A DNA stretch of 64,000 nt from a candidate division FCPU426 bacterium. Its GTDB lineage: Bacteria > Oederibacteriota > Muellerivitia > Muellerivitales > Muellerivitaceae. Location of the stretch: assembly GCA_963796105.1 (NCBI GenBank), contig CAWCKJ010000008.1, positions 128,001 to 192,000 on the forward strand, in the 5' to 3' direction. The position numbers were made by a program, and so were the translations under genes. The notes under the pieces were generated by a model that searched no databases, was not told the DNA's origin, and was given only the letters and a program-made list of their open reading frames with translations. Of the stretch, positions 8,726 through 64,000 are shown piece by piece (the first letter of the stretch is position 1; the number at the start of each line of letters is the position of its first letter).

Positions 8726-9460
8726 TTGGGTCAGAAAATTAACCCGATTGGTTTAAGGGTAGGAATTATCAAAGATTGGGAATCATTGTGGTTTATTGCA
8801 AAGAAAAAAAATTATACATCAACCCTTCTTGAGGACATAGAGATACGAAGATTCGTTAAATTAAGATTAAAACATGCAGGAATTGCAAAAGTTATATTGA
8901 AAAGAAAAGGAGAAATGGTTGAGGTGGATATATTTGCATCCCGGCCGGGAATAGTTATAGGGAAAAAAGGTTCGGAAGTAGATAAGTTGAAAGAAGAATT
9001 GCAGAGATTCACAAAAAAAGAAATACGCATAAACATTAATGAGGAAAAGCACTCTGAAACAAATGCCCAATTGATAGCTGAAAACGTAGCGGGACAGCTT
9101 GAAAAAAGGGTTGCGTTTCGAAGAGCAATGAAAAAATGCATTCAAAGTGCATTGGATGGTGGGGCTAAGGGTATAAAAATAATGTGTTCTGGCCGTTTAG
9201 CAGGAGCTGAAATTGCTCGTAGCGAATGGTATCGGGAAGGTCGAGTTCCACTTCATACTTTAAGAGCGGATATCGACTTTGGAATTACTGTGGCAAACAC
9301 CACTTTTGGAACAATTGGAGTGAAGTGCTGGGTTTTTAAACGCGAAATATTTGGCCTTAAAGAAAAGTTCATGGAAGATACCGCAACCTCTAAACCAAAA
9401 CCAATAGGAAAAGATCGTAAAAATAGTAATCGCGATCTTAATCTGAAAGCTAATAATTAA
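8726..9460 (+). CDS. rpsC: 30S ribosomal protein S3 (TTG start)
   Basis: GQKINPIGLR, GRLAGAEIAR, GRVPLHTLRADID. Confidence 0.98.
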   Translation: MGQKINPIGLRVGIIKDWESLWFIAKKKNYTSTLLEDIEIRRFVKLRLKHAGIAKVILKRKGEMVEVDIFASRPGIVIGKKGSEVDKLKEELQRFTKKEIRININEEKHSETNAQLIAENVAGQLEKRVAFRRAMKKCIQSALDGGAKGIKIMCSGRLAGAEIARSEWYREGRVPLHTLRADIDFGITVANTTFGTIGVKCWVFKREIFGLKEKFMEDTATSKPKPIGKDRKNSNRDLNLKANN

Positions 9461-9475
9461 ATAAGGAATGAATTC

Positions 9476-9901
9476 ATGCTGATGCCAAAGCGAGTTAAAT
9501 ACAGAAAAACGATGAAGGGGAGGATGAGGGGAAAAGCAAAAAATGGTTTTTCTTTTGCTTTTGGTGAATACGCTTTGAAATCTGAAAGTGCTAGTTATGT
9601 TACTGACCGTCAAATTGAGGCTGCGCGAGTAGCGATTAACCGGCACATGAAAAGAGTTGGAAAGTTATGGGTACGTATATTCCCCGATAAGCCTATTACT
9701 CGTAAACCAGCTGAGGTTCGAATGGGGGGTGGAAAAGGTGCTCCTGATCATTGGGCTGCTGTAGTAAAGCCTGGGAGAATATTGTTTGAAGTAAGTGGAT
9801 GCCCAGAACCCATAGTTCGCGAGGCGTTTGAGCTTGCAGCGCATAAACTTCCAGTCATGACAAAATATATTAAAAGGGTTAATGCCGGAGGTCTTTCATG
9901 A
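9476..9901 (+). CDS. rplP: 50S ribosomal protein L16
   Basis: [20 protein letters not shown]. Confidence 0.98.
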
Positions 9902-25401: not shown

Positions 25402-25421
25402 CATTGTTGGAGGGGCAAATT

Positions 25422-26333
25422 ATGAACTACCAACGGATGAAGGGGATTGAGATTTTCAAGGAAATCGATACAGAAGAAAAGGCACGTCAATGGGTGTGGA
25501 AGAGCCGTTTTGCCGGAAAAGACTTTGTTTGCCCACAATGTGAAGGAGAAAGTTTCTGGCAACACAAAAACCGCCCCGAAGTGCGGGAATGTGACTATTG
25601 TCGAAAGCAAATACGGCTTCGAGCCGGAACGATCTTCCGGAAATCCAAGATCCCAATCTTAACCTGGTTGAGGATGATTGGATTGGTGATGCAAGGGAAA
25701 AGGGGCATTTCAGCCCTGGAACTTCAGCGGCAATTGGGAATGCCCTCCTACGATACCGTTTGGAGGATGTTGCATAAGATTCGGGAAAGTCTTCGACAAA
25801 GGGATGAAAATTACCAACTCAAGGAAATCATTGAGTTGGATGGGGCTGTATTCGGCAAGAGAGAAAAGGAAAACCAGGCTGAAGTGCTGGTGGCGGTTGA
25901 AAGCAAAGAATGGATAGATGAGAAAGGGCGCAAAAAAGAGAAAGCGGGTTTTGCAAAGATAAAGGTGACCGCAGAAACCAAGTGGGAAGCCCAAGCATTC
26001 GTCGATCAAGCAATCCAGAAAGGCGCCATGATAAACACGGATGCCAGTCCCAGCTTGAGAAACTTGGAAAACGTGGATGTGGAGTACCAGGTAACAGCCA
26101 ATGACCCAGTGGTGTTAAATCACTGGTTACCTTGGGTCCACCGATTCATTTCCAACGCCAAGGCTTGGATCCTAGGAACCCATCATGGAGTCAACGTGAA
26201 ATATCTGCCTGGATACTTGAGCGAATATACTTATCGGTTCAATCGTCGCCATGACCCAGATTCCTTATTTCACCGGGCCTTAACCGCTTGCGCTTTGGCA
26301 AAACCCATTACTGCGCAAGCGTTGTTCGGATAG
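25422..26333 (+). CDS. IS1595-family transposase
   Basis: CPQC...CDYC Zn ribbon, AGTIF, GISALEL, IELDG, NTD, EYTYRFNRR. Confidence 0.95.
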   Translation: MNYQRMKGIEIFKEIDTEEKARQWVWKSRFAGKDFVCPQCEGESFWQHKNRPEVRECDYCRKQIRLRAGTIFRKSKIPILTWLRMIGLVMQGKRGISALELQRQLGMPSYDTVWRMLHKIRESLRQRDENYQLKEIIELDGAVFGKREKENQAEVLVAVESKEWIDEKGRKKEKAGFAKIKVTAETKWEAQAFVDQAIQKGAMINTDASPSLRNLENVDVEYQVTANDPVVLNHWLPWVHRFISNAKAWILGTHHGVNVKYLPGYLSEYTYRFNRRHDPDSLFHRALTACALAKPITAQALFG

Positions 26334-27386: not shown

Positions 27387-28372
27387 TATGCTTATGCACA
27401 AAGTGACCGTGCTGTAATGGGTTTTGCTAAGGCACATGCGGTCAAAGCACGGTGAAATAAGGAATCGGGATCATGACGACGGTTGAACCGATAGGCATAT
27501 TCACTTAGATACCGGCCTAAATACTTAGCATCAACGCCATGATGAGTTCCAATGATCCAGGCCTTGGCGTTGGAAATGAACCGGTGTACCCAGGGCAACC
27601 AACTTTCCAACTCTTTCGGGTCATTGGCCATCACCCGGTAGTCTGCCTCCACTCCTTTGAGTTCACGCAAGGCTGGCGAAGCATCTGTGTTGAGGAAAGA
27701 GCCTTTTTCCATAGTCTGATTCACGAATTCCTGGCTCTCCCACTTGGTTTCCATAGCTACCTTCACCTTGGCAAAACCCGCTTTTTCCTTCTTGCAACCA
27801 TTCTCATCCACCCATTCCTTGCTTTCCACCGCCACCAAGACTTCCACTTGGTTTTCCTTGGCCTTTTTCCCAAAAACCGCCCCATCCAACTCAATGACGC
27901 CCTTTAGAGTATAGCTTTCGTCCTTTTGCCTAAGACCTTCCCGGATCTTATGCAATAGAAGCCATGCCGAATGATCCGAAAGATTTAAATGCCGCTTCAG
28001 TTCCAGGGCCGAAATACCCCGTTTGCCCTGCATCATCAAACTGATGGCCCTGACCCAGGTTAAAAGAGGCAGCTTGGAGCTTTCAAAAATCGTCCCGGCG
28101 CGAAGCCGAAGACGTTTCCGGCAATAGTCACATTCCCTCACTTCAGGCTTGGCCTGGTGTTGCCAGAAGCTTTCGCCCTCACATTGGGGACAAACAAAGT
28201 CTTTCCCGCCGAAACGGCATCTCCACACCCATTGGCGGGCTTCTTCTTCCGTGTGGATTTTCCTCAGAATTTTAATGCTTTTCATCCGCTGGTAGCTCAT
28301 GTACCACCTCCCGTAGCGGACAGTATACCTATGTATTCCTTTATTTCAAGGGTCACTTAATACAGAAGCATG
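27387..28372 (-). mobile_element. IS1595-family element type 2, copy A (986 bp)
   Basis: 22-bp imperfect IRs TATGCTTATGCACAAAGTGACC / CATGCTTCTGTATTAAGTGACC; target duplication AAATATTT. Confidence 0.92.
27392..28300 (-). CDS. IS1595-family transposase
   Basis: Same motifs as the type 1 transposase; clearly homologous but diverged. Confidence 0.95.
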   Translation of the reverse strand: MSYQRMKSIKILRKIHTEEEARQWVWRCRFGGKDFVCPQCEGESFWQHQAKPEVRECDYCRKRLRLRAGTIFESSKLPLLTWVRAISLMMQGKRGISALELKRHLNLSDHSAWLLLHKIREGLRQKDESYTLKGVIELDGAVFGKKAKENQVEVLVAVESKEWVDENGCKKEKAGFAKVKVAMETKWESQEFVNQTMEKGSFLNTDASPALRELKGVEADYRVMANDPKELESWLPWVHRFISNAKAWIIGTHHGVDAKYLGRYLSEYAYRFNRRHDPDSLFHRALTACALAKPITARSLCA

Positions 28373-49670: not shown

Positions 49671-51264
49671 TTTTTTAACCTGCGCCTCTCCGGAATTCTG
49701 TAATTAATAATGGGTTCCAGGCTGTCACAGATCAAAACAGGGTCCTCCAGGACGGCTCAAGCAATGGGGCGGTGTTTGGAAAAAGAAGAATGGGCGTTTA
49801 TTGGAAAGCCGGACTTGGGATCAATTGCCTGAGTTTGCTGTGAAATAAAGTTGAAAAGCTGTGTCCGAGAAGTAAGGTTATCCAGGGTTCATTCCTAACT
49901 TTCCTCTCCAAAATCCACACATAATCCTTCTGCCGATTAATAAGAAATCATCTTGGATATGTCTGGAGACGCATGAATGGGAAAATAGAACGTAACAAAA
50001 ATAAAAAACAAATAGAATTGAACGTAATCAGGCCACTCGGGACAGAAATACAACAAAAAATTTCCATTTTTTTCTTTCGTTTAACGAGAAATTGTTTTTT
50101 TCGCTGGTTTCAGACGTTCGGTTCATCTCAACCATTTGGTGGCCGCGTTGGAAGAAGTTCAGGTTATGTCTTTGTAAAAAAATAATTATTTATTATTAAA
50201 AATTATTTTTATGCGGTAATATTCTCTCGAATTTATTTTTAAAAAAAGTTTATCTGCTTAAAAAATTTCTAGGCGAATCGTATGAATAGAATTGGACCTG
50301 ACAATCCAGCCCCGCGAAAAACAAAAAGCTTCCTTTCTTTAATTCTTGTCATTTCAACCTCAGCCTTTTTCTTCCTCATCATGGCTTTTATTTCCATTTT
50401 TTCTTCCTCGGCTCTTTCCTGGGAATTCCCATGGAACTCTGGTAGCGTTTCAGCCGACGCCGGCAATCAGAAAGTAATTTCGTATTCAACCACCCCGACT
50501 CCTACTCCTTCTGGTTATAACAGGGTAAAAAATAAATATCCCCGCCATGGCGGCTCTACATGGAATTCGACCAATCAAGGGACGCTCGGTTCACACGCGC
50601 CTAGCACGGTGATTTGGGGTTTTAGAAATAAACCCACTACGACCAGGACTGCAATGGTCACTGGGTCTCTCACGCCGACCTCCACAGGTACTCAAAGCCC
50701 CACCGCGACTCCGATAGCGACCTATAGCCGGACCCTAGATGATTTGAAAAGGCCTTGGGATTTTACTGCCAGTCTCGACAGTGGAGCTGTGGTCTTAACC
50801 TGGCGCTCCCCCCGGGCGGGGACCTTCAGCCATCCCATGGGCTATCACATTTACCGTTCCGAGGGGCCCGCCGATACCTTCCAAATGATCGGGACCATTT
50901 TGGCGGATGAGGGAACAAGCAGTAAATCTTTCGCGATGTTCAAGGATTACGCCTGGCCGGGAAATTGGTGCTATCAGGTGACGGCTTTCATCATGAACCC
51001 CGTGGCGGAAAGCGAGCCGTCGAATGAAACCTGCGTGGAGTTGAATTCTCCGCCGACTCCCACGCTTACCCCGACAAAATCACCAACAGCAATTCCACCA
51101 CCCACCATTACCCCTAGCCCGACTGAGATTCAAAACAAGACATCTTCTTTTGCGGATATCAACCCAATGGCTTCAACGAACACATTCACGCCGACAAAAA
51201 CTTCCACCAAAACATCAACGCCTACCGCGACATCAACTTCAACAAAGACCTTCACTTGGACATC

Positions 51265-51835
51265 AACTTTTACCCGGACGTATACACCAAACAGTTATAC
51301 GCCGACACCGACCTATACACGCACAAATACCCCAAATAGCTATACGCCGACTCCGACATCGACGAAAACTTTTACCTACACCCCATCCTATACCCGCACA
51401 TCCACGCCGAATAGTTATACGCCCACGAAAACCACGACTAAAACTTGGACAATGACTTTTACCCGTACTTACACGCCGAGTAGTTATACGCCGACACCAA
51501 CCTATACAAAAACCAACACGCCGACCCCCAACGCCACCCAAACTTTCGCGCTAACCGCTACGTACCAAGCGCAGGAAACCCAAACTGAAAATGCCTTCCT
51601 GAGTTTCACTCCAACCCCGACCCTGACCAATACGAACACATTCACTAATACCAATACTTATACCCCCACAGTTCCAACCCCGACCTTTACCTACACATAC
51701 ACGCCTACAGTGCCGACGCCGACATTCACTTATTCTTACACTCCCATAGTTCCAACCCCGACATTTACCCGTACGTATACGCCCACAGGTCCGACACCGA
51801 CATTTACCTATACTTACACGCTGACGACGCCGCCG
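51265..51835 (+). repeat. Coding tandem repeats in the Thr-Pro stalk
   Basis: TRTxTPNSYTPT-like units, then ~5 x 39-bp units encoding TYTPTVPTPTFTY. Confidence 0.8.
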
Positions 51836-52579
51836 ACGCCCTGCGTGACTAACGCGGTCACTTGGAGCGGGAACATGAGCTACCCGTCTGGGGTGGTATA
51901 CGGGGCGGACGGGAACGTCTATGTGCTGAACAACGGGAGCAACCTGGTGCAGGTGTTCACGGCGCAGGGGGTGTATTTGAGGGGGTTCATCGTACCCACA
52001 AGCGACCCGCGGGGAACTGCGCAGGGGCCGGACGGGAACCTGTACATCAGCGACAACGGGAACAAGCGTGTGGACGTTGTGAGCACGCAGGGGGTGTCGT
52101 TGTCGGTAATCGGAAAGGGGGTGTTCGGGAGCACGCAGGGAATGGCTTTCGGGCCCAACGGAAACCTGTACGTGGCGGACCCGGCGGACAACGTGGTGAG
52201 GGAATACCAGGTGAACGGGACGGCGGTGACGCAGTTTGGGACAGGGAAGGCTGATTCTTTCCTGGGAGACTTGAACAACCCGCAGGCGGTGGCGTTGGAC
52301 GCCTCTGGGAACGTGTATGTGTATGACAAGAACAACAGCCGTGTGGAAGAGTTCAATCCCTCGGCATTGGCTTTGAGGGTGTGGGGAGAGGGGAACGAGA
52401 ACACATACCAGATGAAATTCGACGCGAACGGGTTCCTGTGGGAAGTGGACAACTCTAACAACCGTTTATTGGTTTACGACGTGAACGGAAACCAGAGGGA
52501 GATCGTCGGGAGCGGGGGGGAGGATCGGGACAGTTTAACAGTCCCTATGCGCTGGATATTGACCCGAATGGAAATATTT

Positions 52580-53567
52580 CATGCCTATCCGAACAACGCT
52601 TGCGCAGTAATGGGTTTTGCCAAAGCGCAAGCGGTTAAGGCCCGGTGAAATAAGGAATCTGGGTCATGGCGACGATTGAACCGATAAGTATATTCGCTCA
52701 AGTATCCAGGCAGATATTTCACGTTGACTCCATGATGGGTTCCTAGGATCCAAGCCTTGGCGTTGGAAATGAATCGGTGGACCCAAGGTAACCAGTGATT
52801 TAACACCACTGGGTCATTGGCTGTTACCTGGTACTCCACATCCACGTTTTCCAAGTTTCTCAAGCTGGGACTGGCATCCGTGTTTATCATGGCGCCTTTC
52901 TGGATTGCTTGATCGACGAATGCTTGGGCTTCCCACTTGGTTTCTGCGGTCACCTTTATCTTTGCAAAACCCGCTTTCTCTTTTTTGCGCCCTTTCTCAT
53001 CTATCCATTCTTTGCTTTCAACCGCCACCAGCACTTCAGCCTGGTTTTCCTTTTCTCTCTTGCCGAATACAGCCCCATCCAACTCAATGATTTCCTTGAG
53101 TTGGTAATTTTCATCCCTTTGTCGAAGACTTTCCCGAATCTTATGCAACATCCTCCAAACGGTATCGTAGGAGGGCATTCCCAATTGCCGCTGAAGTTCC
53201 AGGGCTGAAATGCCCCTTTTCCCTTGCATCACCAATCCAATCATCCTCAACCAGGTTAAGATTGGGATCTTGGATTTCCGGAAGATCGTTCCGGCTCGAA
53301 GCCGTATTTGCTTTCGACAATAGTCACATTCCCGCACTTCGGGGCGGTTTTTGTGTTGCCAGAAACTTTCTCCTTCACATTGTGGGCAAACAAAGTCTTT
53401 TCCGGCAAAACGGCTCTTCCACACCCATTGACGTGCCTTTTCTTCTGTATCGATTTCCTTGAAAATCTCAATCCCCTTCATCCGTTGGTAGTTCATAATT
53501 TGCCCCTCCAACAATGAGTATACTCCTGTATTCCTTTATTTCAACAGGTACCGTTTGGAGAGGCATT
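52580..53567 (-). mobile_element. IS1595-family element type 1, copy B (988 bp)
   Basis: Same length and translated protein as 25351-26338; flanked by AAATATTT on both sides. Confidence 0.94.
52585..53496 (-). CDS. IS1595-family transposase
   Basis: Protein identical to 25422-26333. Confidence 0.95.
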   Translation of the reverse strand: MNYQRMKGIEIFKEIDTEEKARQWVWKSRFAGKDFVCPQCEGESFWQHKNRPEVRECDYCRKQIRLRAGTIFRKSKIPILTWLRMIGLVMQGKRGISALELQRQLGMPSYDTVWRMLHKIRESLRQRDENYQLKEIIELDGAVFGKREKENQAEVLVAVESKEWIDEKGRKKEKAGFAKIKVTAETKWEAQAFVDQAIQKGAMINTDASPSLRNLENVDVEYQVTANDPVVLNHWLPWVHRFISNAKAWILGTHHGVNVKYLPGYLSEYTYRFNRRHDPDSLFHRALTACALAKPITAQALFG

Positions 53568-53575
53568 AAATATTT

Positions 53576-54561
53576 TATGCTTATGCACAAAGTGACCGTG
53601 CTGTAATGGGTTTTGCTAAGGCACATGCGGTCAAAGCACGGTGAAATAAGGAATCGGGATCATGACGACGGTTGAACCGATAGGCATATTCACTTAGATA
53701 CCGGCCTAAATACTTAGCATCAACGCCATGATGAGTTCCAATGATCCAGGCCTTGGCGTTGGAAATGAACCGGTGTACCCAGGGCAACCAACTTTCCAAC
53801 TCTTTCGGGTCATTGGCCATCACCCGGTAGTCTGCCTCCACTCCTTTGAGTTCACGCAAGGCTGGCGAAGCATCTGTGTTGAGGAAAGAGCCTTTTTCCA
53901 TAGTCTGATTCACGAATTCCTGGCTCTCCCACTTGGTTTCCATAGCTACCTTCACCTTGGCAAAACCCGCTTTTTCCTTCTTGCAACCATTCTCATCCAC
54001 CCATTCCTTGCTTTCCACCGCCACCAAGACTTCCACTTGGTTTTCCTTGGCCTTTTTCCCAAAAACCGCCCCATCCAACTCAATGACGCCCTTTAGAGTA
54101 TAGCTTTCGTCCTTTTGCCTAAGACCTTCCCGGATCTTATGCAATAGAAGCCATGCCGAATGATCCGAAAGATTTAAATGCCGCTTCAGTTCCAGGGCCG
54201 AAATACCCCGTTTGCCCTGCATCATCAAACTGATGGCCCTGACCCAGGTTAAAAGAGGCAGCTTGGAGCTTTCAAAAATCGTCCCGGCGCGAAGCCGAAG
54301 ACGTTTCCGGCAATAGTCACATTCCCTCACTTCAGGCTTGGCCTGGTGTTGCCAGAAGCTTTCGCCCTCACATTGGGGACAAACAAAGTCTTTCCCGCCG
54401 AAACGGCATCTCCACACCCATTGGCGGGCTTCTTCTTCCGTGTGGATTTTCCTCAGAATTTTAATGCTTTTCATCCGCTGGTAGCTCATGTACCACCTCC
54501 CGTAGCGGACAGTATACCTATGTATTCCTTTATTTCAAGGGTCACTTAATACAGAAGCATG
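53576..54561 (-). mobile_element. IS1595-family element type 2, copy B (986 bp)
   Basis: Same length and translated protein as 27387-28372; flanked by AAATATTT. Confidence 0.94.
53581..54489 (-). CDS. IS1595-family transposase
   Basis: Protein identical to 27392-28300. Confidence 0.95.
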   Translation of the reverse strand: MSYQRMKSIKILRKIHTEEEARQWVWRCRFGGKDFVCPQCEGESFWQHQAKPEVRECDYCRKRLRLRAGTIFESSKLPLLTWVRAISLMMQGKRGISALELKRHLNLSDHSAWLLLHKIREGLRQKDESYTLKGVIELDGAVFGKKAKENQVEVLVAVESKEWVDENGCKKEKAGFAKVKVAMETKWESQEFVNQTMEKGSFLNTDASPALRELKGVEADYRVMANDPKELESWLPWVHRFISNAKAWIIGTHHGVDAKYLGRYLSEYAYRFNRRHDPDSLFHRALTACALAKPITARSLCA

Positions 54562-57500
54562 AAATATTTATGTGGCGGATTGGACGAATCAGAGGGTGGA
54601 CAAGTGGTACTCCTGTGGAATGGTTCCCACGATGACTCCTACGATAACATTGACTCCCACTCAGACTTACACCAATACCAATACTTGGACTTACACCCCG
54701 GATGTAACCCAAACCATGTCCAATACGCCTGTTATTACCAACACCCCTTTAAGCACTTTCACCTTTACGAATACGGCGACCTATACCGCCACTTACACAT
54801 ACACCGCTACTTACACAAATACCTTTACCAACACGATGTCATACACCCCTACCTTTTCCTATAGCCCGACCCCTACCGGCAGTCCGTCGCCCATTTCAAC
54901 GTCAACCTTCACTCCTATTTACACTAATACAAGCACTTTAACCCCCACCATCACATTAACACCTGTTAATTGCACCCTTTCCTTGATAACGGATAATTCC
55001 ATGAATGGCCCGGAGGCGGTGGGGGTTGATGCTCAAGGGAATATTTATGAGGTCGAATCGGGTTCCAACCAGCTTCAGGTGTTTAATTCATCGGGTGTTT
55101 CCACCAACTCCTGGGATGGTTCTTCCTCCGGCGTGGTTTTTAACGATCCTGAAGGCTTAGCGGTGGACTCGAATAACCAAATGGTTTACGTGAGCGATAC
55201 GGGAAATGCCCGGATCGTGGTTTTCAGCCTGGCCGGCAATTACCAGTCGCAATGGAGCACTTCTATAAACGGGCAGATGAGTTCCCCGGAGCAGATAGCA
55301 GTACCAGGGGACGGCTATGTCTATGTGGCTGATGCCGCCGCAGGGCTCATATTGAAATACCTGCCGAATGGGACTCTATTCAATCAATTCACCGGATCGG
55401 GTAACGGGTTGCTGGTGAATCCCACGGGCGTGGCGCTGGATACCTCTTACAACCTTTATGTCGCCGACATGGGGACCAACCAAATAGTGGCCCTGAATCC
55501 CTCCGGCGGTGTTATCACCACCTGGGGAATTTTCGGAACCGGGATAGGACAGTTTATCGATCCGGAGGAAATATTGGTGGCGCCAGATTCCATCGCTGGT
55601 CTCGCGCAGGCGGTTTACGTGGCGGATTCCGGCAACGCCAGGGTGCAGGAATTCGATCCATCCGGCAATTTCATCAACCAAACAACGGGAGCGGGATTTT
55701 ACCAGGCTGGTTTGGGCGACCCGTCTGGAATTTGCGTGAGGGATTCCAGCCACATCTATGTCGCGGACAATGAAAATAATAATATCACCGTATTCGGATT
55801 ATGTTCCGGCATCATTACCCCGACCTTTACCATCACCTTAACCCCGACCTATACATCCACCCCGACCCCCACTGGCACTTACCCGACCTTCACGCCAACC
55901 AACACTTCCACTTCCACCATTACCGACACCTTTACCATTACGAATACGCCCACGAATTCATTTACGATCACGCCATTCTCCACTTCAACCCCGGTATTCT
56001 CATCCACGCCTACCTACAGCCCCTCGATCACATACACCCCCAACAGCTTCTCGCAAACGGGCGTGTGCCTGTCGTTCTCGAACAGCTTCATGTCCCCCAA
56101 TTCCAACGATATCAATGGAAGCGCTGTGGACGGGAACGGCAACCTTTACTTGTCCCAAAACGATATCGTAGTGTTGAATGCTCAGGGATCCGCGTTAACG
56201 GAGTGGGGCGGCACAGTGCTCCAGTATCCTGAGGGGTTGGCGGTCAACAACGCCGTGAGTCTTGTGTACGTTGTGGACGGTGATGCCAATCAAGTGGATG
56301 TGTTCAATTGGCAGGGAGTCCTTCAGACCCAGTTCTCAGCCGTTTCCAACGGGACCACCCTCAACAACCCCACGGGAATCGCCCTGGACGGCAGTGGAAA
56401 CGTGTATGTGTCTGACACGGACAACAACCAAGTGGGGGTATTTGGACAGGCGGGAAATCCCTTGACCGTCATTACTGGCTTAAATTCACCCGAGGGGATC
56501 GCGGTGGACGGCGGGGGAAATATCTATGTGGGAGAAGCCGGGTCGGCCCAGGTGACCAAATTCAACTCCGCCTTCCAGAGGCTTTTTAGCTTCAATGGGA
56601 ATGGCGCGGTGGGAGAACCCTATGAGATGAAAACCGATTCCATGAATTTATTGTGGGTAGGCGACGGCCAGAACGACCAATTGATGGTGTTCAACTCAAA
56701 CGGAGCCCTGTTGAATAGTTTCTCGGGTCCCGATATCGGCGGGGCTTCTTTCGACATGCCCATGGTTTCGGTCGATTCCCAGGAAAATGTCTATGTCCCG
56801 GACACGACCGGGTCCTTGATCCAGAGATTCACCTTCTGTGAGGCGACTAACACCCCTACGGTGACTTTAAGCCCTACCATTACCAACACTCCGACTTTCA
56901 CCTACACCTTCACACCATCGCCGACCCCCACTATCACACTCACCTTTACCATTACCCCCGCCCTGGAATCCAAGGCCACCGCAACCTTGACGCCAACGGG
57001 CACCTTCCCCACGGGCACCCCGACCGGATCGGCCACGCCGACGCCGACCCCCACCCAGGCCATTGCCTACACCCCTGTGCCAGGCGCTTACATTTCCCGC
57101 ATCAACGTGGCGGGGGAATTTTATAACGATGCCCAATCGAATTACTGGATGGCGGACCAGGGTTACGAGCCGGGCGGCGGCGCCGGTTTTGTCGTGGATT
57201 CGGATCCCTATTACACCACGGACATAGTCACGGGCACCTCGGATCAACCCCTTTACAATACTTTCGTGGCCGGGACCGATATCGAGTATAAATTCGACGT
57301 GGCTCCCGGTATCTACCAGGTGAAGTTGAAGATGTTCGACGCCTTTTACCAACAAGCCGGGCAGGGGATTTTCAGCGTGACGGCCAATGGAACCACCATG
57401 GTTTCCAACCTGGACCTTTACGCCGTTTCGGGGTATTTCAACGCTTATGATGTCACTTTCTTGGTGACGGTCTTAAATTCCACCCTCGATTTGGCGTGGA

Positions 57501-57600
57501 GTTCCAGCGCGGGACTGGCAACCGTCTCTGCCATTCAGGTATCCGGCATGTCGGTAATCCCTTCGCCCACATTCACCTATCCGCCAAATTTTACCCCCCC

Positions 57601-59346
57601 GCCCACGCCTTGCTTGACCTATGTTTCCCGGGTGCAAGTGGGGAATTGGCCGATAGCGGCTGCGGTCGATCCCTTGGGTAAAGTGTATGAGCTGGAATAC
57701 AGCGGAGATGAAATCCAGGTATTCAATTCAGCCGGAGTATTCCTGAACAAGTTCGGGAGCCAAGGAACCGGGTTGGGCCAGTTTGAAAAGCCGTTGGGAA
57801 TGGTGATAGGGCTCAATGGGAACCTTTATGTGGTGGAAGGGGACGGCGCTAACCACCGGGCGCAGGAATTGACAACGGCCGGTGTGCCAGTAACGGCGTG
57901 GACCGGATCTGCGGCCGGGGGAAACTTTGTAGCGCCCCGTTCCATCGGGGTGGATGCCGCGGGAAACATCTATGTCGCGGACGGGAACACCATTCAAATC
58001 TTCGACCAAAACGGGAATTACTTGAAGAAGTGGACCAAGCAAGCCGGTTCATTGGAGAATCAAGCGGCTGGGTTTATGGGAATCGCGGTGGATGGGAATG
58101 GAAATGTTTATTTGGGTGATCTAAACCAAAGGGTGGACGTGTTCGACAATAACGGGAATTTCCTGAGGATGTGGGGCAGTTCGGGAAGCAACCCGGGGCA
58201 GTTCAACAACATATGGGGAATGCAACTTGACACCCAGGGAAGGTTGTGGGTGTGGGAGGACACTGGGAACCGGGTGCAGGTGTTCGACAAGTACGGGGAT
58301 TTCCTGTACCAATACAACCATCCTGGCGGGGGTGCTGGGCAGTTCTCCCGTCCGTTGGGGTTCACGGTGAAGCCGGACGGGTCGGCCTATGAGGCGGACT
58401 GGAATACCGGAGATTTGCAGTATTTCTTGCCCTGCGGGACCGTGCCAACCATGACACCCACCATGACTCTTATGCCCACGCCTTGCCTGACCTATGTTTC
58501 CCGGGTTCAAGTGGGGAATAGCCCAATTGCGGCGGCGGTTGACTCCTCTGGAAATGTTTATGAGTTGGAAGATGGCGGTAATGAAATCCAGGAGTTCAGT
58601 TCGGCCGGAGTATTCCTGAACAAGTTTGGGAGCCATGGGACTGGTCTGGGCCAGTTCGAGAATCCATTGGGTATGGTGATAGGGCCCAATGGGAACCTTT
58701 ATGTGGTGGAAGGGGACGGCGCTAATCACCGGGTGCAGGAATTGACATCGGCCGGTGTGCCTGTAACGGCATGGACTGGGTCTGTGGCGGGTGGAAACTT
58801 CACGAATTGCCGTTCCATTGGGGTGGATGGGAATGGAAACATTTATGTTGGTAACAACAACACCATTCAAATTTTCGATCAAAATGGGAATTACCTGAAG
58901 AGTTGGTCAAAGCAGAGTGGCTCGTTGGAAAACCAAGCGAATGGATTTATGGGAATCGCGGTGGATGGGAATGGAAATGTTTATTTGGGTGATCTAAACC
59001 AAAGGGTGGACGTGTTCGACAATAACGGGAATTTCCTGAGGATGTGGGGCAGTTCGGGAAGCAACCCGGGGCAGTTCAACAACATATGGGGAATGCAACT
59101 TGACACCCAGGGAAGGTTGTGGGTGTGGGAGGACACTGGGAACCGGGTGCAGGTGTTCGACAAGTACGGGGATTTCCTGTACCAATACAACCATCCTGGC
59201 GGGGGTGCTGGGCAGTTCTCCCGTCCGTTGGGGTTCACGGTGAAGCCGGACGGGTCGGCCTATGAGGCGGACTGGAATACCGGAGATTTGCAGTATTTCT
59301 TGCCCTGCGGGACCGTGCCAACGATCACCCCAACCCCCACCCTGAT
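57601..59346 (+). repeat. Tandem duplication of an 873-bp NHL propeller module
   Basis: Two units offset by 873 bp; 58073-58449 matches 58946-59322 exactly by eye. Confidence 0.92.
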
Positions 59347-60823
59347 GTCCACGCCCTGCGTGCAATTCCAGGGGGTGCGGATCAGCGGGAGCGTTCTCAA
59401 CAATCCCTACGGTGTTGCGGTAGGGCCGGATGGGAACATCTACGAGGGTGATTGGTCCGGGAAAAAGGTGCAGGTGTTCAGCCCAATGGGTTTGTGGCAG
59501 AGGAGTTTTGGAGTGACCTACCCAAGCGGGATGGTGTTCGGCTCCGACGATAATTTATATGTGTCTCAGTATTCCATGAACCAAGTGGGGGTTTACAACC
59601 CGCAAACCGGGCAGGCGGTGGCGACGATCGGGAGTGGATTAGTCAATAGCCCGGCTGGCGAGTGCTTTGACAGCGCGGGATACTTGTACGTGGCGGATAG
59701 CGGACACCACAGGGTGTTGAAGTTTAATACCGCTACCGGCGGGGTGTCACAAGTGTTTGGGGCTGGCGTTACGGGACCGTACCTGGGAGAAATAAGTAAT
59801 CCCGACGGGATCGCGCTGGATGGGCAGGGGAACCTGTATGTGGCCGATGTGTACGTTAATCCCGGGGATACTTCTCGTATCCAGGTATTCGCGCCCAACG
59901 GGGTGGCTTTACGGCAATGGGGTAGTTATGGGAGCGGAGTAACGCAGTTTTCGGATGATGTCAAGCTGTTGATGGGCGGGAATGGGTTGTTGTGGGCGGT
60001 GGACCGGGACAACCATAGGATCGAGATTTATGATTTCTACGGGAATTTACAGGAGACGATCGGGCCCGCCGTGAGCGGGTTGTCGGGCGGCTTCGGCGAC
60101 GTGGGAGATATAGCGTTTGGGGCGAATGGGCAGGTATGGGCGACCGAGTTCTGGAACAACCGGGTGGATTCTTTCTTCTTTTGTAACCAGTCCTCAAATA
60201 TCATGCCGATTCCCACGCCGGCGCCCGGCACTTACATCCTCCGCCTGGACAGCGGCTCCTCACAAACCTATAGCGATCCCAACTCCAACCTTTGGCTCTC
60301 GGACCAGGCCTATGCCTCGGGCGCATACGGCTATACCCAAGGCGGGTCGGTTTATACCACGACTACCACCGTATCCGGTACCAATAGCCCGGCCCTGTAT
60401 CAAACTTACCGGGCTGGCTCCACCCTCGCCTACAGCTTCGCCTTGCCGGCGGGACATTACCAAGTGACCCTCAAGTTCGCGGATTTCATCAGCACCGGGG
60501 CCGGGCAGAACGTTTTCAACGTGGCCCTCAATGGAACGGCCATGAGCCAGGGTTTGGATATCTTTGCCGGGGTGGGATCAGCGGTGGCCACCGATCGAAG
60601 CTACCGGGTGGATATCACGGGAATCACTCCCTTGACCCTGCAACTGTCCGCCACTCAAGGCCAGGCCTTCCTTTCGGCCATCGAGATCAAGGGCCTTCAG
60701 GCCAATGTGAACTCGTTAATAAATTATTTCTACTCACCAGGCGGTGGGTCGTTGCTTCCTTAAGCCGGAAAGAATCCGCTTTGTTTTAATGATTTAATTT
60801 GAGTATTGAACGGAGAAGTGGAA

Positions 60824-63800
60824 ATGCGGTTGAAAAATAAAAAATACAGGCTTTATTTTTTGCGGCTGGTTTTGTCCTTCCTCATGGTCCTGGGGAATCC
60901 AATGCCCTTCATCGCGGCGATGGCCTCCCTCTCCCTGAGGGCGGCGCTTCCGGCTTTCGCGGCCTCTTTGCTTTTCTCCGCCAGAAGGGCTTATGCCCGC
61001 GTGGCCTATGCCAATCCCGGGCGGGCGGTGGATTTGAGCCGCTTCAACCTCAGCAACGACCCCACGGACGAGGACTTCCAAAAGGTAAAGGCTTTTGACG
61101 AGCCCTTCGTGCCTTTGGAGATTCCCGCGGACCCGAATGAGAACGCTGATTTGGCCAAGGCCTTGAACCAGGAAGTTTCAGACAAAGCGGACGAATCCCT
61201 CCAGGTTCTGGGGGATTTTGTGGCCCAACATCCCCATAGCCGGTGGGTCTTGTCCGTGGAACTAAACAGGGGACTGGCCCTCGCGCGGAGGGGTTATTTT
61301 ACAAAGGCGCTGAAGGCCTTTCAGACAGCCTGGGACGCGGGTCAAAAGGGGACCGGGACCGCCGGAAATTTGGCCGACCATGCCCTTTCGGAATTAATGC
61401 GAATGGAAAGCCGGGTGGGGCTCCAGGACGAATTAAAAAGCGAGTTGGAACTGATGAAAGGCCGCACTCCCCAAGGCTTGGCGGCGCGCCAAACGGAGGA
61501 GGCCCGGATGGCCCTGGGAGCCATGCAAAAACACCCGGATAGGGCCTTCAGGTGCGGATCACAAGCCCTTGAAAGAATATTGGCTTTTAAAAAATCAAAA
61601 AAAGCCCAGGATTCCTTGTTCATGCAAACGAAATCCACTGAAAAAGGGATTTCTTTGGATCAGGTTTACGGCCTTTCGGAACAATTAGGGATGGGAATGC
61701 AAATGGCCAAAAGGGAACCGGGGGCGAAGGTCCTGTTGCCGGCCGTGGTGCATTGGAAACTGGGGCATTACGCGGCCTTGTTGGAGGAAAAAAACGGAAT
61801 GATCCGGTCCCAGGACACCGCGTTTATGAACGAGATTTGGATTTCGGAAAAAGCCTTGAACGAGGAATCTTCCGGTTATTTCCTGGTGCCGGGGGGAGGC
61901 CTGCCGGCAGGGTGGAGTCCCGTCAATATGGACGAAGCGGCGACAATTTGGGGAAAGGGTGGTACCGATGGTTCGTCTCCACCCCCACCCTGCGGGGGAG
62001 GTCCCACTAGCGGCGGCGGCGGTGCTCAAGGGGGTACATGCGGTATGCCTAGGACCAACATTGACTTGGCCACGACCTCGGCCATGGTGGTGGATACACC
62101 CCTATGGTACAAGCCGCCTGTAGGCCCGGAAATGCGCTTCATGTTGACCTACCACCAAAGGACGCCGGACGCTCTGCCCTACACCAACTTCGGGACCAAT
62201 TGGAATTTTAACTGGCAGGGTTTTATCGAATATTCATTTAGCGGCTCCCAGGCCTCAAATTACATCCTTGTGGCAAGGGGCGGGGGGGAAGACCCTTTTT
62301 CTGGACCGGGAGGGACCACCAAATATCTGACCTACCTGGTCAATGCCACGACGACCTTTTCAAGCGGCCCGGCGGCTGGTTTGCCCTCGGCCTTCACCGT
62401 GCAAAAGCCTGACGGGGGAATGGAAACATACGGGCTGGGCTTCGCAAACCCGGGCGGCCTAGTCAAATGCTTATTGACCCAGATGACCGATCCCCAGGGC
62501 AACAATATGACGATTCAATACGATTCAATGAACAGGATCCAGAGTGTCACAGACGCCCTGGGGCAACAAAGCACCTTCAGCTACGGCGCTGACAATTATT
62601 TCAAGGTCACTCAGATCACTGATCCTTTCGGTCGACACGCGAATTTCACCTATGATATTCATGGCTTCCTGCAATCCATCACTGACCAGCTGGGCCTGAC
62701 CAGCAGTTTCACCTATATCATGTTGGACCCGGCGGCTTCGGGAGGTACTGCGGGAACTATGGTGCACGTATTTTCTGACGCGGTGTTGAGCATGACCACT
62801 CCCTACGGTACGACCACCTTCGATTACTCGGGTACGGATGATACTCTCAACAAACAAGAAGTGGAAATCACAGACCCGCTTGGTCAAAAAGAGCACGCCA
62901 AATATTTTGACTCCGGCACCATACCGGATGATAACTTAAACCCGCCCGCGGGGATCATGGCTGACGCAAATCCCGGCAGTTTATTGAGCATGAGGAATGT
63001 ATTTTACTGGGACAAGAAAGCCATGGAGGACGATCCCTTGGATCCCAACTCGGCAACCATCTATCACTACCTGCATACGTCCTCGGATCTTTCGGTGAGG
63101 GCCCTGGTGCTGGGAAGCTGGAAAAAGCCGCTGGAAAACAGGGTTTATTTCGGTTACACAGGGCAATATGACGGCTACCAGGAGTCCAGCGACCTGATGC
63201 CTCCCCTGCCCAACGTTGTGGCGAGGTACCTGGCTGACGGCAGCACCCAGGCCTACCATTACACTTATAACATCTTGGGGAAAAAGACGAGTTATATGGA
63301 CCCTAAGGGAAGAAATTTTATTTACGACTACGCGAATAACGGTATTGACCTGTTGGACGTGAAGGATGGAAACGGGGACATGCTGGCGGCCTATGGCAAC
63401 TACGCGAACCACAAGCCGGGGACCTATACCGACACGGCGGGACAAGTGTGGAGCTACCAGTACAACGCAGCGGGGCAGATGACTTCGATGAGGGCGCCCC
63501 AGGGCGAGACGACGTCTTACAACTATGACTCGAACGGATTTTTAACTTCCGTGGTATCATCCCAGCCAGGGGCGGGAGTAACCTACACTTATGACAATTG
63601 TGGAAGGACGCATACCAGGTCAGACGCCGCCAATGGAACCCTTGTTTATCATTACGACAACGGGGATCGTGTAACGAGAATCGATTTCCCGGATTTGACG
63701 CATGAGACCTATTCCTACGCCAAGCTGGACTTGGTCTCCTTCACGGACAGGCAGAACCGCACGACCGGCTACCAATACGACGCAGTCCAAAGGTTGACAG

Positions 63801-64000
63801 CTGTGACCGACCCCAAACAGCAATCCACCGGTTATGGCTGGTGCGCCTGTGGGGCATTGGCAAGCCTAACCGACCCGAAAGGAAACAAGACCTCCTGGAA
63901 CAGGGATCTGGAAGGACGTGCCATCAGCAAGACCTACCAAGACGGGAGCCAATACATTTACCAGTATGATTCGGCTGGCGAGCGGTTGTTCCAAGTGACG
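60824..64000 (+). CDS. RHS/YD-repeat protein with N-terminal C39-peptidase-like domain (3'-truncated; not in ORF track)
   Basis: ATG 60824 after GGAG; first ~1.4 kb translated by hand and window end reads in the same frame: hydrophobic leader, FRCGSQAL, VVHWKLGHYAAL, QD, then DTPLWYKPPVGP...NFGTNW and YD repeats (TDPQGN, YDSMNR, YQYDSAG). Confidence 0.88.
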   Translation, partial: MRLKNKKYRLYFLRLVLSFLMVLGNPMPFIAAMASLSLRAALPAFAASLLFSARRAYARVAYANPGRAVDLSRFNLSNDPTDEDFQKVKAFDEPFVPLEIPADPNENADLAKALNQEVSDKADESLQVLGDFVAQHPHSRWVLSVELNRGLALARRGYFTKALKAFQTAWDAGQKGTGTAGNLADHALSELMRMESRVGLQDELKSELELMKGRTPQGLAARQTEEARMALGAMQKHPDRAFRCGSQALERILAFKKSKKAQDSLFMQTKSTEKGISLDQVYGLSEQLGMGMQMAKREPGAKVLLPAVVHWKLGHYAALLEEKNGMIRSQDTAFMNEIWISEKALNEESSGYFLVPGGGLPAGWSPVNMDEAATIWGKGGTDGSSPPPPCGGGPTSGGGGAQGGTCGMPRTNIDLATTSAMVVDTPLWYKPPVGPEMRFMLTYHQRTPDALPYTNFGTNWNFNWQGFIEYSFSGSQASNYILVARGGGEDPFSGPGGTTKYLTYLVNATTTFSSGPAAGLPSAFTVQKPDGGMETYGLGFANPGGLVKCLLTQMTDPQGNNMTIQYDSMNRIQSVTDALGQQSTFSYGADNYFKVTQITDPFGRHANFTYDIHGFLQSITDQLGLTSSFTYIMLDPAASGGTAGTMVHVFSDAVLSMTTPYGTTTFDYSGTDDTLNKQEVEITDPLGQKEHAKYFDSGTIPDDNLNPPAGIMADANPGSLLSMRNVFYWDKKAMEDDPLDPNSATIYHYLHTSSDLSVRALVLGSWKKPLENRVYFGYTGQYDGYQESSDLMPPLPNVVARYLADGSTQAYHYTYNILGKKTSYMDPKGRNFIYDYANNGIDLLDVKDGNGDMLAAYGNYANHKPGTYTDTAGQVWSYQYNAAGQMTSMRAPQGETTSYNYDSNGFLTSVVSSQPGAGVTYTYDNCGRTHTRSDAANGTLVYHYDNGDRVTRIDFPDLTHETYSYAKLDLVSFTDRQNRTTGYQYDAVQRLTAVTDPKQQSTGYGWCACGALASLTDPKGNKTSWNRDLEGRAISKTYQDGSQYIYQYDSAGERLFQVT

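Follow-up and report, generated by a model that had tools for sequence, protein, structure and literature searches.

A predicted strand-donating dock between a modular adhesin and a C39-RHS capsule in a candidate division FCPU426 bacterium

The stretch of DNA analysed here (the window) comprises 64,000 nucleotides of a candidate division FCPU426 bacterium (assembly GCA_963796105.1, contig CAWCKJ010000008.1, positions 128,001 to 192,000, or G000:C8:128001-192000, where G000 is the source genome, 96.8% complete). Its last part carries two neighboring genes on the forward strand, one for a large modular adhesin and one for a protein combining a C39 peptidase domain with an RHS/YD shell (C39-RHS). 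We consider it probable that the two form a system in which the exported adhesin docks on the RHS toxin capsule by lending it a missing beta-strand.

The adhesin gene begins with a 5' piece (50282..52579, forward strand) encoding a hydrophobic leader (amino acids (aa) 14-47 by hydropathy), an FN3-like domain (about 50729-51038), a Thr/Pro stalk, and most of the first NHL propeller, which starts at 51842. The 3' piece (54570..60763, same strand) encodes the end of propeller 1, propellers 2 and 3 (54971-55804 and 56066-56839), a first malectin domain (57092-57502), propellers 4 to 6 (57611-58435, 58484-59308, and 59357-60184), a second malectin domain (60236-60649) and a free C-terminal tail, INYFYSPGGGSLLP (60719..60760), which is the predicted donor strand, corresponding to strand A of an Ig fold. 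The six NHL modules, delimited from sequence only, are about 260-280 aa each and bounded by a cysteine pair, with propellers 4 and 5 being 90% identical. The FN3-like domain, for which a Pfam search gave no match, was assigned through the ESM Atlas, where it matches at 0.91 a cluster with 73% fn3 members. The initial annotation had described a single exported protein of about 2,830 aa. Its leader, FN3-like domain, six NHL modules, two malectin domains and Thr/Pro stalks are all present, but its integrity is not: the figure of 2,830 aa is obtained by reading through the two breaks with an X placed at each, and the gene is inactivated in this assembly by two IS1595-family insertion sequences (ISs) and a frameshift, the list of open reading frames (ORFs) showing it as two plus-strand ORFs (50282-52648 and 54572-60763) with two minus-strand ORFs between them. 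With both elements removed in silico the frame remains off by one, and the shift maps to a run of seven G within the NHL-coding part (52514..52520, forward strand). It is either a true mutation or a homopolymer error of the assembly, in which small indels are rare (one gap per 53,293 bases over 54 IS copies compared). Contigs from four of the nine listed runs covered the IS copies along with short pieces 99% alike, none spanning the insertion site. As the adhesin gene is broken, the capsule would be left without its partner in this genome, and as the 3' piece has no leader, the system would be undocked in this assembly.

The stop of the adhesin gene is separated by 60 bp from the start codon of the C39-RHS gene at 60824; no terminator is listed between the two, and promoter and terminator scans stayed at the level of shuffled sequence. 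The first part of the C39-RHS gene lies in the window (60824..64000, forward strand), and its stop is at L001:9052 (window-equivalent 66052), L001 coordinates being window positions minus 57000 on the same contig (C8), which runs past the window end. The protein is complete, at 1,742 aa, with a signal peptide (by hydropathy only), a helical domain, the C39 domain, the YD shell, the RHS core and a tip. The C39 domain (61553..61888, forward strand) matches its family with 22.8 and 25.5 bits against a cut-off of 22; residues C244, H315, and D331 are invariant in four of four aligned relatives, and the domain is followed by WGKG (aa 376-379), with GKG found 3' of the domain in all four close relatives and in most of the wider set of loci. 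The YD repeats match PF05593 (163 bits), and the core (L001:8411-8638) matches TIGR03696 (61.4 bits, cut-off 32.5), with a bipartite aspartate motif, DPMG plus DLLG, the second carrying Leu instead of Pro. A hydrophobic variable tip of 137 aa follows (L001:8639-9049), and then two small ORFs for two-helix membrane proteins, candidate immunity genes (L001:9074-9310 and 9264-9542). The initial annotation, which had seen a same-strand C39-YD gene with its own hydrophobic leader 60 bp behind the adhesin and had proposed an encapsulated effector and an immunity gene beyond the window, was accurate as to the former, and extension of the sequence has produced the core, the variable tip, and the candidate immunity genes.

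The adhesin and the C39-RHS are a conserved pair. The N-terminal half of the C39-RHS has strong matches in three of 60 related genomes, 13 more showing weak matches to YD repeats. One example is G027, in which an intact 2,559-aa FN3-NHL-malectin gene stops 18 bp before the C39-RHS gene, and another is G006, in which a 3,179-aa adhesin gene precedes it; in G023 the C39-RHS gene is placed after another RHS end. The pair is repeated in the same order in metagenome loci L090/L091, L096, and L097, as well as in L045, L065, and L092, which represent the same pair and were counted once. In a quick tree, the window protein groups with L065, from a record titled Ca. Firestonebacteria. The number of propellers differs among the adhesins of relatives, and in other phyla the partners possess LamG, Ig, FN3, or other domains in place of NHL: C39-RHS genes in records of Verrucomicrobiota, Lentisphaeria, Gemmatimonadaceae, and Acidobacteriota are located 3' of unrelated LamG, Ig, FN3, or beta-helix proteins. 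The family is large: of the 7,990 proteins scored, 1,163 reach E<=1e-20.

What these partners have in common is a terminal docking strand, not an NHL propeller. On the acceptor side, an Ig-like insert is placed in the RHS shell just before the last YD hairpins (L001:7817-8020, forward strand), and its model predicts an Ig fold short of one strand, strand A. The model has six strands (predicted local distance difference test, pLDDT, 86.5), its best fold match in both searches is glucodextranase (Z 7.8, root-mean-square deviation 2.6, 70 residues aligned), and several stand-alone Ig/FN3 chains align with it from residue 12-19 on only. Likewise, the insert matches Glucodextran_B only at profile positions 20-79 of 83; 14 of 20 insert members match this family, the L073 insert doing so over the cut-off at positions 19-81. 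The strand-B glycine is located 17-19 residues past the preceding YD repeat in 49 of the 50 measured inserts, a spacing that leaves no room for strand A. On the donor side, the adhesins of relatives share one kind of ending (NYFYSPGGGSLLP, NYFFEPGGTGLMP, and IFLSEPGGGALAP), and the tails of distant partners are PPxITLTxPxxAxxxP-like. The first strands of related intact domains, such as ITAPLPGGAVP (L122) and AVTQPRPGAAVP (sulfite oxidase), share with SPGGGSLLP a P-x-x-G-x-x-hydrophobic-P spacing. A search of 1.84 billion proteins with the tail profile produced 111 matches, 75 of them terminal or near the C-terminus, 35 internal or repeated, and one not recovered locally; each of the seven internal examples displayed forms strand one of a complete Ig domain, and an insert-profile match follows 33 of 179 internal tail stretches, compared to 328 of 7,000 random positions (4.7%).

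The second line of evidence is co-occurrence. From 57 loci examined, 19 not reaching the core and two duplicates were removed, leaving 36, of which 21 possess the insert; five of these have no upstream DNA, so 16, the window included, could be judged. At 15 of the 16 the upstream gene is tailed (13 by pattern, with L067 read across a frameshift and L091 having its tail one small gene further up). No tail is found at any of 13 loci devoid of the insert, these being 14 less the frameshifted L088, with L075 also set aside. In the latter (L075:4470-12419), extra domains interrupt the Ig insert of the RHS protein, and the upstream gene has a variant tail. At nine of the 13 insert-free loci, the YDxNGNL hairpin is absent at the same site of the shell, and all nine hairpin-less shells have neighbors whose mature N-terminus is of the type Q..F.YD..GNL, compared to none of the four loci with complete shells; the base rate of this hairpin in the genome of the window is two of 2,152 ORFs. 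Of 120 homologues, 108 extend as far as the core; 55 of them have the Ig insert, 39 lack the hairpin, 13 are complete, and one was left unassigned, the site at this shell position being incomplete in 94 of these 108. Eleven further regions, taken after the rules had been fixed, gave nine loci once one duplicate and one fragment were removed; a tailed upstream ORF was present at five of five insert loci (five genomes), and a hairpin partner was located directly downstream at four of four hairpin-less loci. The pairing persists across phyla and wholly different cargo. Moreover, in G003 an FN3-cargo-stalk cassette is inserted covalently in the RHS chain at apparently the same loop, and G015 has the same domain order. 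That the strand is supplied in trans is predicted from motif identity and from the co-occurrence of tail and insert.

Possibly, a third pairing mode is represented by L083, L086, L101, L108-L110, and L117, in which the gene preceding the C39-RHS gene (whose shell is complete where this can be judged) encodes a beta-propeller with a VITTK/VDITTS-like final strand.

A number of observations weigh against the docking model. The window insert scores 17.4 bits, below the Pfam cut-off of 27, and the best fold Z reaches 7.8 only. The window tail is the most diverged, ranking 85th of 2,370 ORF ends with a profile of ten distant tails (the tails of four relatives rank 6-12 with the same profile), and in the reverse test four of the ten distant tails rank poorly. 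HHalign of the tails versus the relatives' intact Glucodextran_B-like domains gave a probability of 0.2%, with one family dominating the set; 12 isolated 30-aa tails had no Pfam match, and the insert profile found weak matches only among PDB sequences. The second RHS of the array in L093 has the insert but no tailed gene directly upstream. The tail pattern was defined after the discovery set had been seen, and in the fresh set four inserts were called by hidden Markov model and one (L157) by eye, four tails by pattern and one (L155) by eye, and all four hairpin loci come from one genome. Finally, the insert and hairpin classes are clustered on a quick tree on which two changes each suffice; as the loci are kin, the counts represent few evolutionary events and are not independent, and Fisher tests on them were given no weight for this reason.

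The diverged tail of the window, with its weak resemblance to the distant ones, would also agree with a different explanation, that the tail either is a remnant left by an ancient split of the gene or serves in sorting, and that the two proteins are co-expressed without binding each other. The existence of fused chains in the same family points in this direction as well: in G014 (4,846 aa) and G019 the same cargo is joined to an RHS shell. These chains, however, use another shell type (DUF6531-like, no C39 match), and more generally the single-chain giants (G014, G019, and 55 longer RHS proteins of 3,050-5,000 aa, which match at most 30% of the query), while similar to the system considered here in carrying FN3, NHL, malectin, Ig, or LamG cargo on an RHS shell, are covalent, and C39 is listed in none of them. 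Further, a stretch of about 1,350 codons, which includes the signal peptide and the C39 domain, separates the tail from the insert, so that a single gene break cannot yield both. The tail pattern occurs at 25 of 2,370 ORF ends of the genome and the strict motif at this one only, whereas other large proteins are marked by FlgD_ig, a domain that the adhesin does not have although it is matched 68 times in the genome. Among 265 other ORFs of at least 300 aa in the loci, RHS partners account for 15 of the 16 tails and for all 11 hairpins. We consider a relic or a sorting signal quite improbable.

Another way to connect the two chains would be for the C39 peptidase to cut the tail at its Gly-Gly motif and to join the adhesin covalently to the shell. 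The tails of the window's adhesin family do contain PGG, and the catalytic residues are conserved in the four aligned relatives. The distant tails, however, are devoid of Gly-Gly, and C39 is also present in hairpin-less RHS proteins whose partners have no tail, and we regard such joining as very unlikely. In the docking model, C39 would act elsewhere. These peptidases cut after small-residue pairs, and by analogy the domain here may trim an N-terminal pro-region near WGKG. C39 near the signal peptide, with a proposed role in chain processing, is known from the giant proteins of Omnitrophota (10.1101/2023.11.21.568195, accessible text), and C39-like domains are known from polymorphic toxin systems, C39 being listed there as a toxin domain, Tox-PL-C39 (PMC3482391, accessible text). 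Neither source, in its accessible text, describes an RHS shell that has C39 at its N-terminus and an adhesin as partner.

The name teneurin-like, given to the pair by the initial annotation, is not supported. In teneurin-like proteins (TLPs), an FN-plug, NHL, and YD shell occur in one chain in invariant order (PMC13018210, accessible text). Likenesses to TLPs include a signal peptide, variable adhesion modules, a YD shell, a self-cleaving core motif, a tip of about 15 kDa, and a gene or genes directly downstream; the BiTLP tip, according to the same text, is hydrophobic, as here, and a delivery machine is evident in neither. The differences are NHL in a separate gene, an N-terminal C39 on the RHS protein, and a shell of a different affinity: the shell model (aa 408-1605, pLDDT 89.7) matched T6SS (type VI secretion system) Rhs cores in Foldseek at a query TM-score (TMq) of 0.68-0.72 (PDB 8qjc, 8qjd, 7pq5, and 8uxt), compared to 0.45 for TLP 9ifo and 0.3-0.4 for teneurins. 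One could still argue for a split teneurin, with a propeller of the adhesin packing against the shell in the manner of the TLP NHL domain, considering that FN3-like, NHL, and YD domains are all present over the two genes and that one stretch partially matches TEN_NHL (profile 133-170 of 357). This is highly improbable, in our estimation, given not only the shell comparison but also the partners in other phyla that have no NHL, the abundance of NHL in the genome (136 matches), and the varying number of propellers among relatives; profile searches found no NHL match within the RHS chain itself.

In shell structure, the T6SS-linked Rhs proteins are the closest, and they also share the RHS core and the variable tip, but no secretion apparatus of this type was found with the system. 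VgrG and PAAR had already been reported as missing from the window, and in the 96.8%-complete genome TssC, VgrG, and PAAR were not found (PF05943, TIGR01646, and PF05488); the C39-RHS instead possesses a signal peptide, a helical domain, C39, and the Ig insert in the shell. Two secretins are found in the genome. The route by which RHS/YD capsules without T6SS reach their targets is stated to be open even for TLPs (PMC13018210, accessible text).

In chaperone-usher pilins, strand G of the Ig fold is missing and is filled by the N-terminal extension of another chain. The arrangement predicted here resembles such donor-strand complementation in that an Ig fold one strand short would be completed in trans by a terminal extension, and it differs in that the missing strand is predicted to be strand A, a C-terminal tail acts as donor, an RHS shell houses the acceptor, and no polymer is formed.

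The docking model, as a whole, would be as follows. Both chains would leave the cell by Sec, and the adhesin tail would complete the Ig fold of the insert as strand A, tethering the capsule to the NHL/malectin arm, which may bind glycans on the surface of either a target cell or the producer itself. The RHS core would cleave itself and free the hydrophobic tip, and the tip would attack membranes, while being restrained by the two small membrane proteins. The binding of the adhesin to the RHS protein and the cleavage by C39 are inferences, as are the toxicity of the tip and its neutralization by the downstream genes.

The toxin half of the model can be questioned further, as the tip of the window protein matches no known family and the tip of a relative (L045) is a Pro-rich, low-complexity stretch with no evident catalytic part. 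The docking could be real and the RHS not a weapon, with the capsule and the adhesin serving adhesion, kin recognition, or signaling, and a role in communication is left open for TLPs (PMC13018210, accessible text). Four RHS copies in the genome (on C8, C9, C11, and C12), however, bear four different tips with different genes behind each, an extra core fragment is present at the end of C8, and orphan cores occur, all typical of the layout of polymorphic toxins; a hydrophobic tip followed by membrane proteins also resembles the BiTLP tip, which, when provided with a signal peptide, permeabilized E. coli (PMC13018210, accessible text). A non-weapon function is thus unlikely, though it deserves to be kept in mind.

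Beyond this locus, we lean toward viewing the C39-RHS proteins as a toxin platform that is widespread and independent of T6SS, each shell having a docking port at a single fixed position. Swappable adhesins, from about 200 to >3,000 aa, would attach there by strand complementation of two separate kinds, a C-terminal Ig strand A entering an Ig insert or an N-terminal YD hairpin entering a gap in the shell wall, or would sit there covalently. If so, a single adhesin could serve several capsules, and the toxin tip and the range of targets could change independently of each other. The system appears to be a so far undescribed variant of RHS polymorphic toxin systems and not a TLP; a literature search covering titles and abstract openings, with most subscription papers and supplements outside its scope, found no account of a C39-RHS with a strand-donating partner. 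Should the binding hold, this would be a natural case of split-domain coupling, in which adhesin and toxin modules are exchangeable without gene fusion, and the docking idea is reducible to a peptide of 14-20 residues and a domain of 70 residues.

The DNA behind the candidate immunity genes (L001:9514-15627) encodes a 108-aa ORF, an RstR-like helix-turn-helix (HTH) protein (minus strand), a 750-aa ORF, and two tyrosine recombinases. The combination of HTH, a 750-aa Walker-A-like ORF, and two tyrosine recombinases recurs downstream of RHS genes and has orphan RHS ends in its vicinity; the element or its 750-aa ORF is found at L001:9514-15627, L003:1-2726, L091, L093, G019:C97, G017:C33, and G013:C3, and in relatives the 750-aa ORF is also situated close to other types of RHS gene. 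A role in shuffling RHS tips is possible for this element, which was not encountered in the available DNA 3' of the RHS gene in L065; the downstream DNA of L096 and L097 is too short to judge. The label primase for the 750-aa ORF has no backing from Pfam, NCBIfam, or named PHROG families, and an identification of the element as IntKX was dropped, as the accessible text of PMC8138268 defines IntKX as integrases of integrative and conjugative elements. HicB-like and HicA genes are located to the right of the recombinases (L001:15744-16213).

Elsewhere in the genome, many of the 68 FlgD_ig matches are in open frames of >1,000 aa, and together with the 136 NHL matches these likely represent a large set of exported proteins. 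One example of a related gene is a leader-FN3 paralogue (58%) at L004:12839-15637 (G000 C3:509839-512637, minus strand), which carries a different cargo domain of no assigned class, has a long Thr/Pro stalk, and stops at inserted IS elements, beyond which are remnants of the recombinase element and then an RHS end. Small, secreted-looking paralogues of 110-121 aa, with a motif like GKLTKDQAKxLK, are located beside several RHS loci (G000 C3:502187-502552, C3:326051-326416, C3:735130-735489, and C4:1476989-1477333); a look-alike is found between the adhesin and RHS genes in L090/L091 (L090:9598-9930), and these small proteins are a possible accessory factor.

The two elements interrupting the adhesin gene are in tandem among three copies of the 8-bp target duplication AAATATTT (52572-52579, 53568-53575, and 54562-54569). 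Element a (988 bp, 52580..53567, minus strand; transposase 52585-53514) is represented in the genome by 24 full, near-identical copies, and element b (986 bp, 53576..54561, minus strand; transposase 53581-54489) by 30, and both are assigned to IS1595 by an ISXO2-like DDE transposase, the 8-bp target duplication, and the presence of multiple copies. Pairs of a and b exactly 8 bp apart, with a shared target duplication and in several orientations, occur at five sites (window 52580-54561; G000 C3:859236-861215, C4:829924-831905, C4:1025906-1027887, and C6:9614-11595), accounting for ten of the 54 full copies and suggesting a preference for an already used target. Additional copies of both elements are located in the window at 25404-26333 and 27392-28300.

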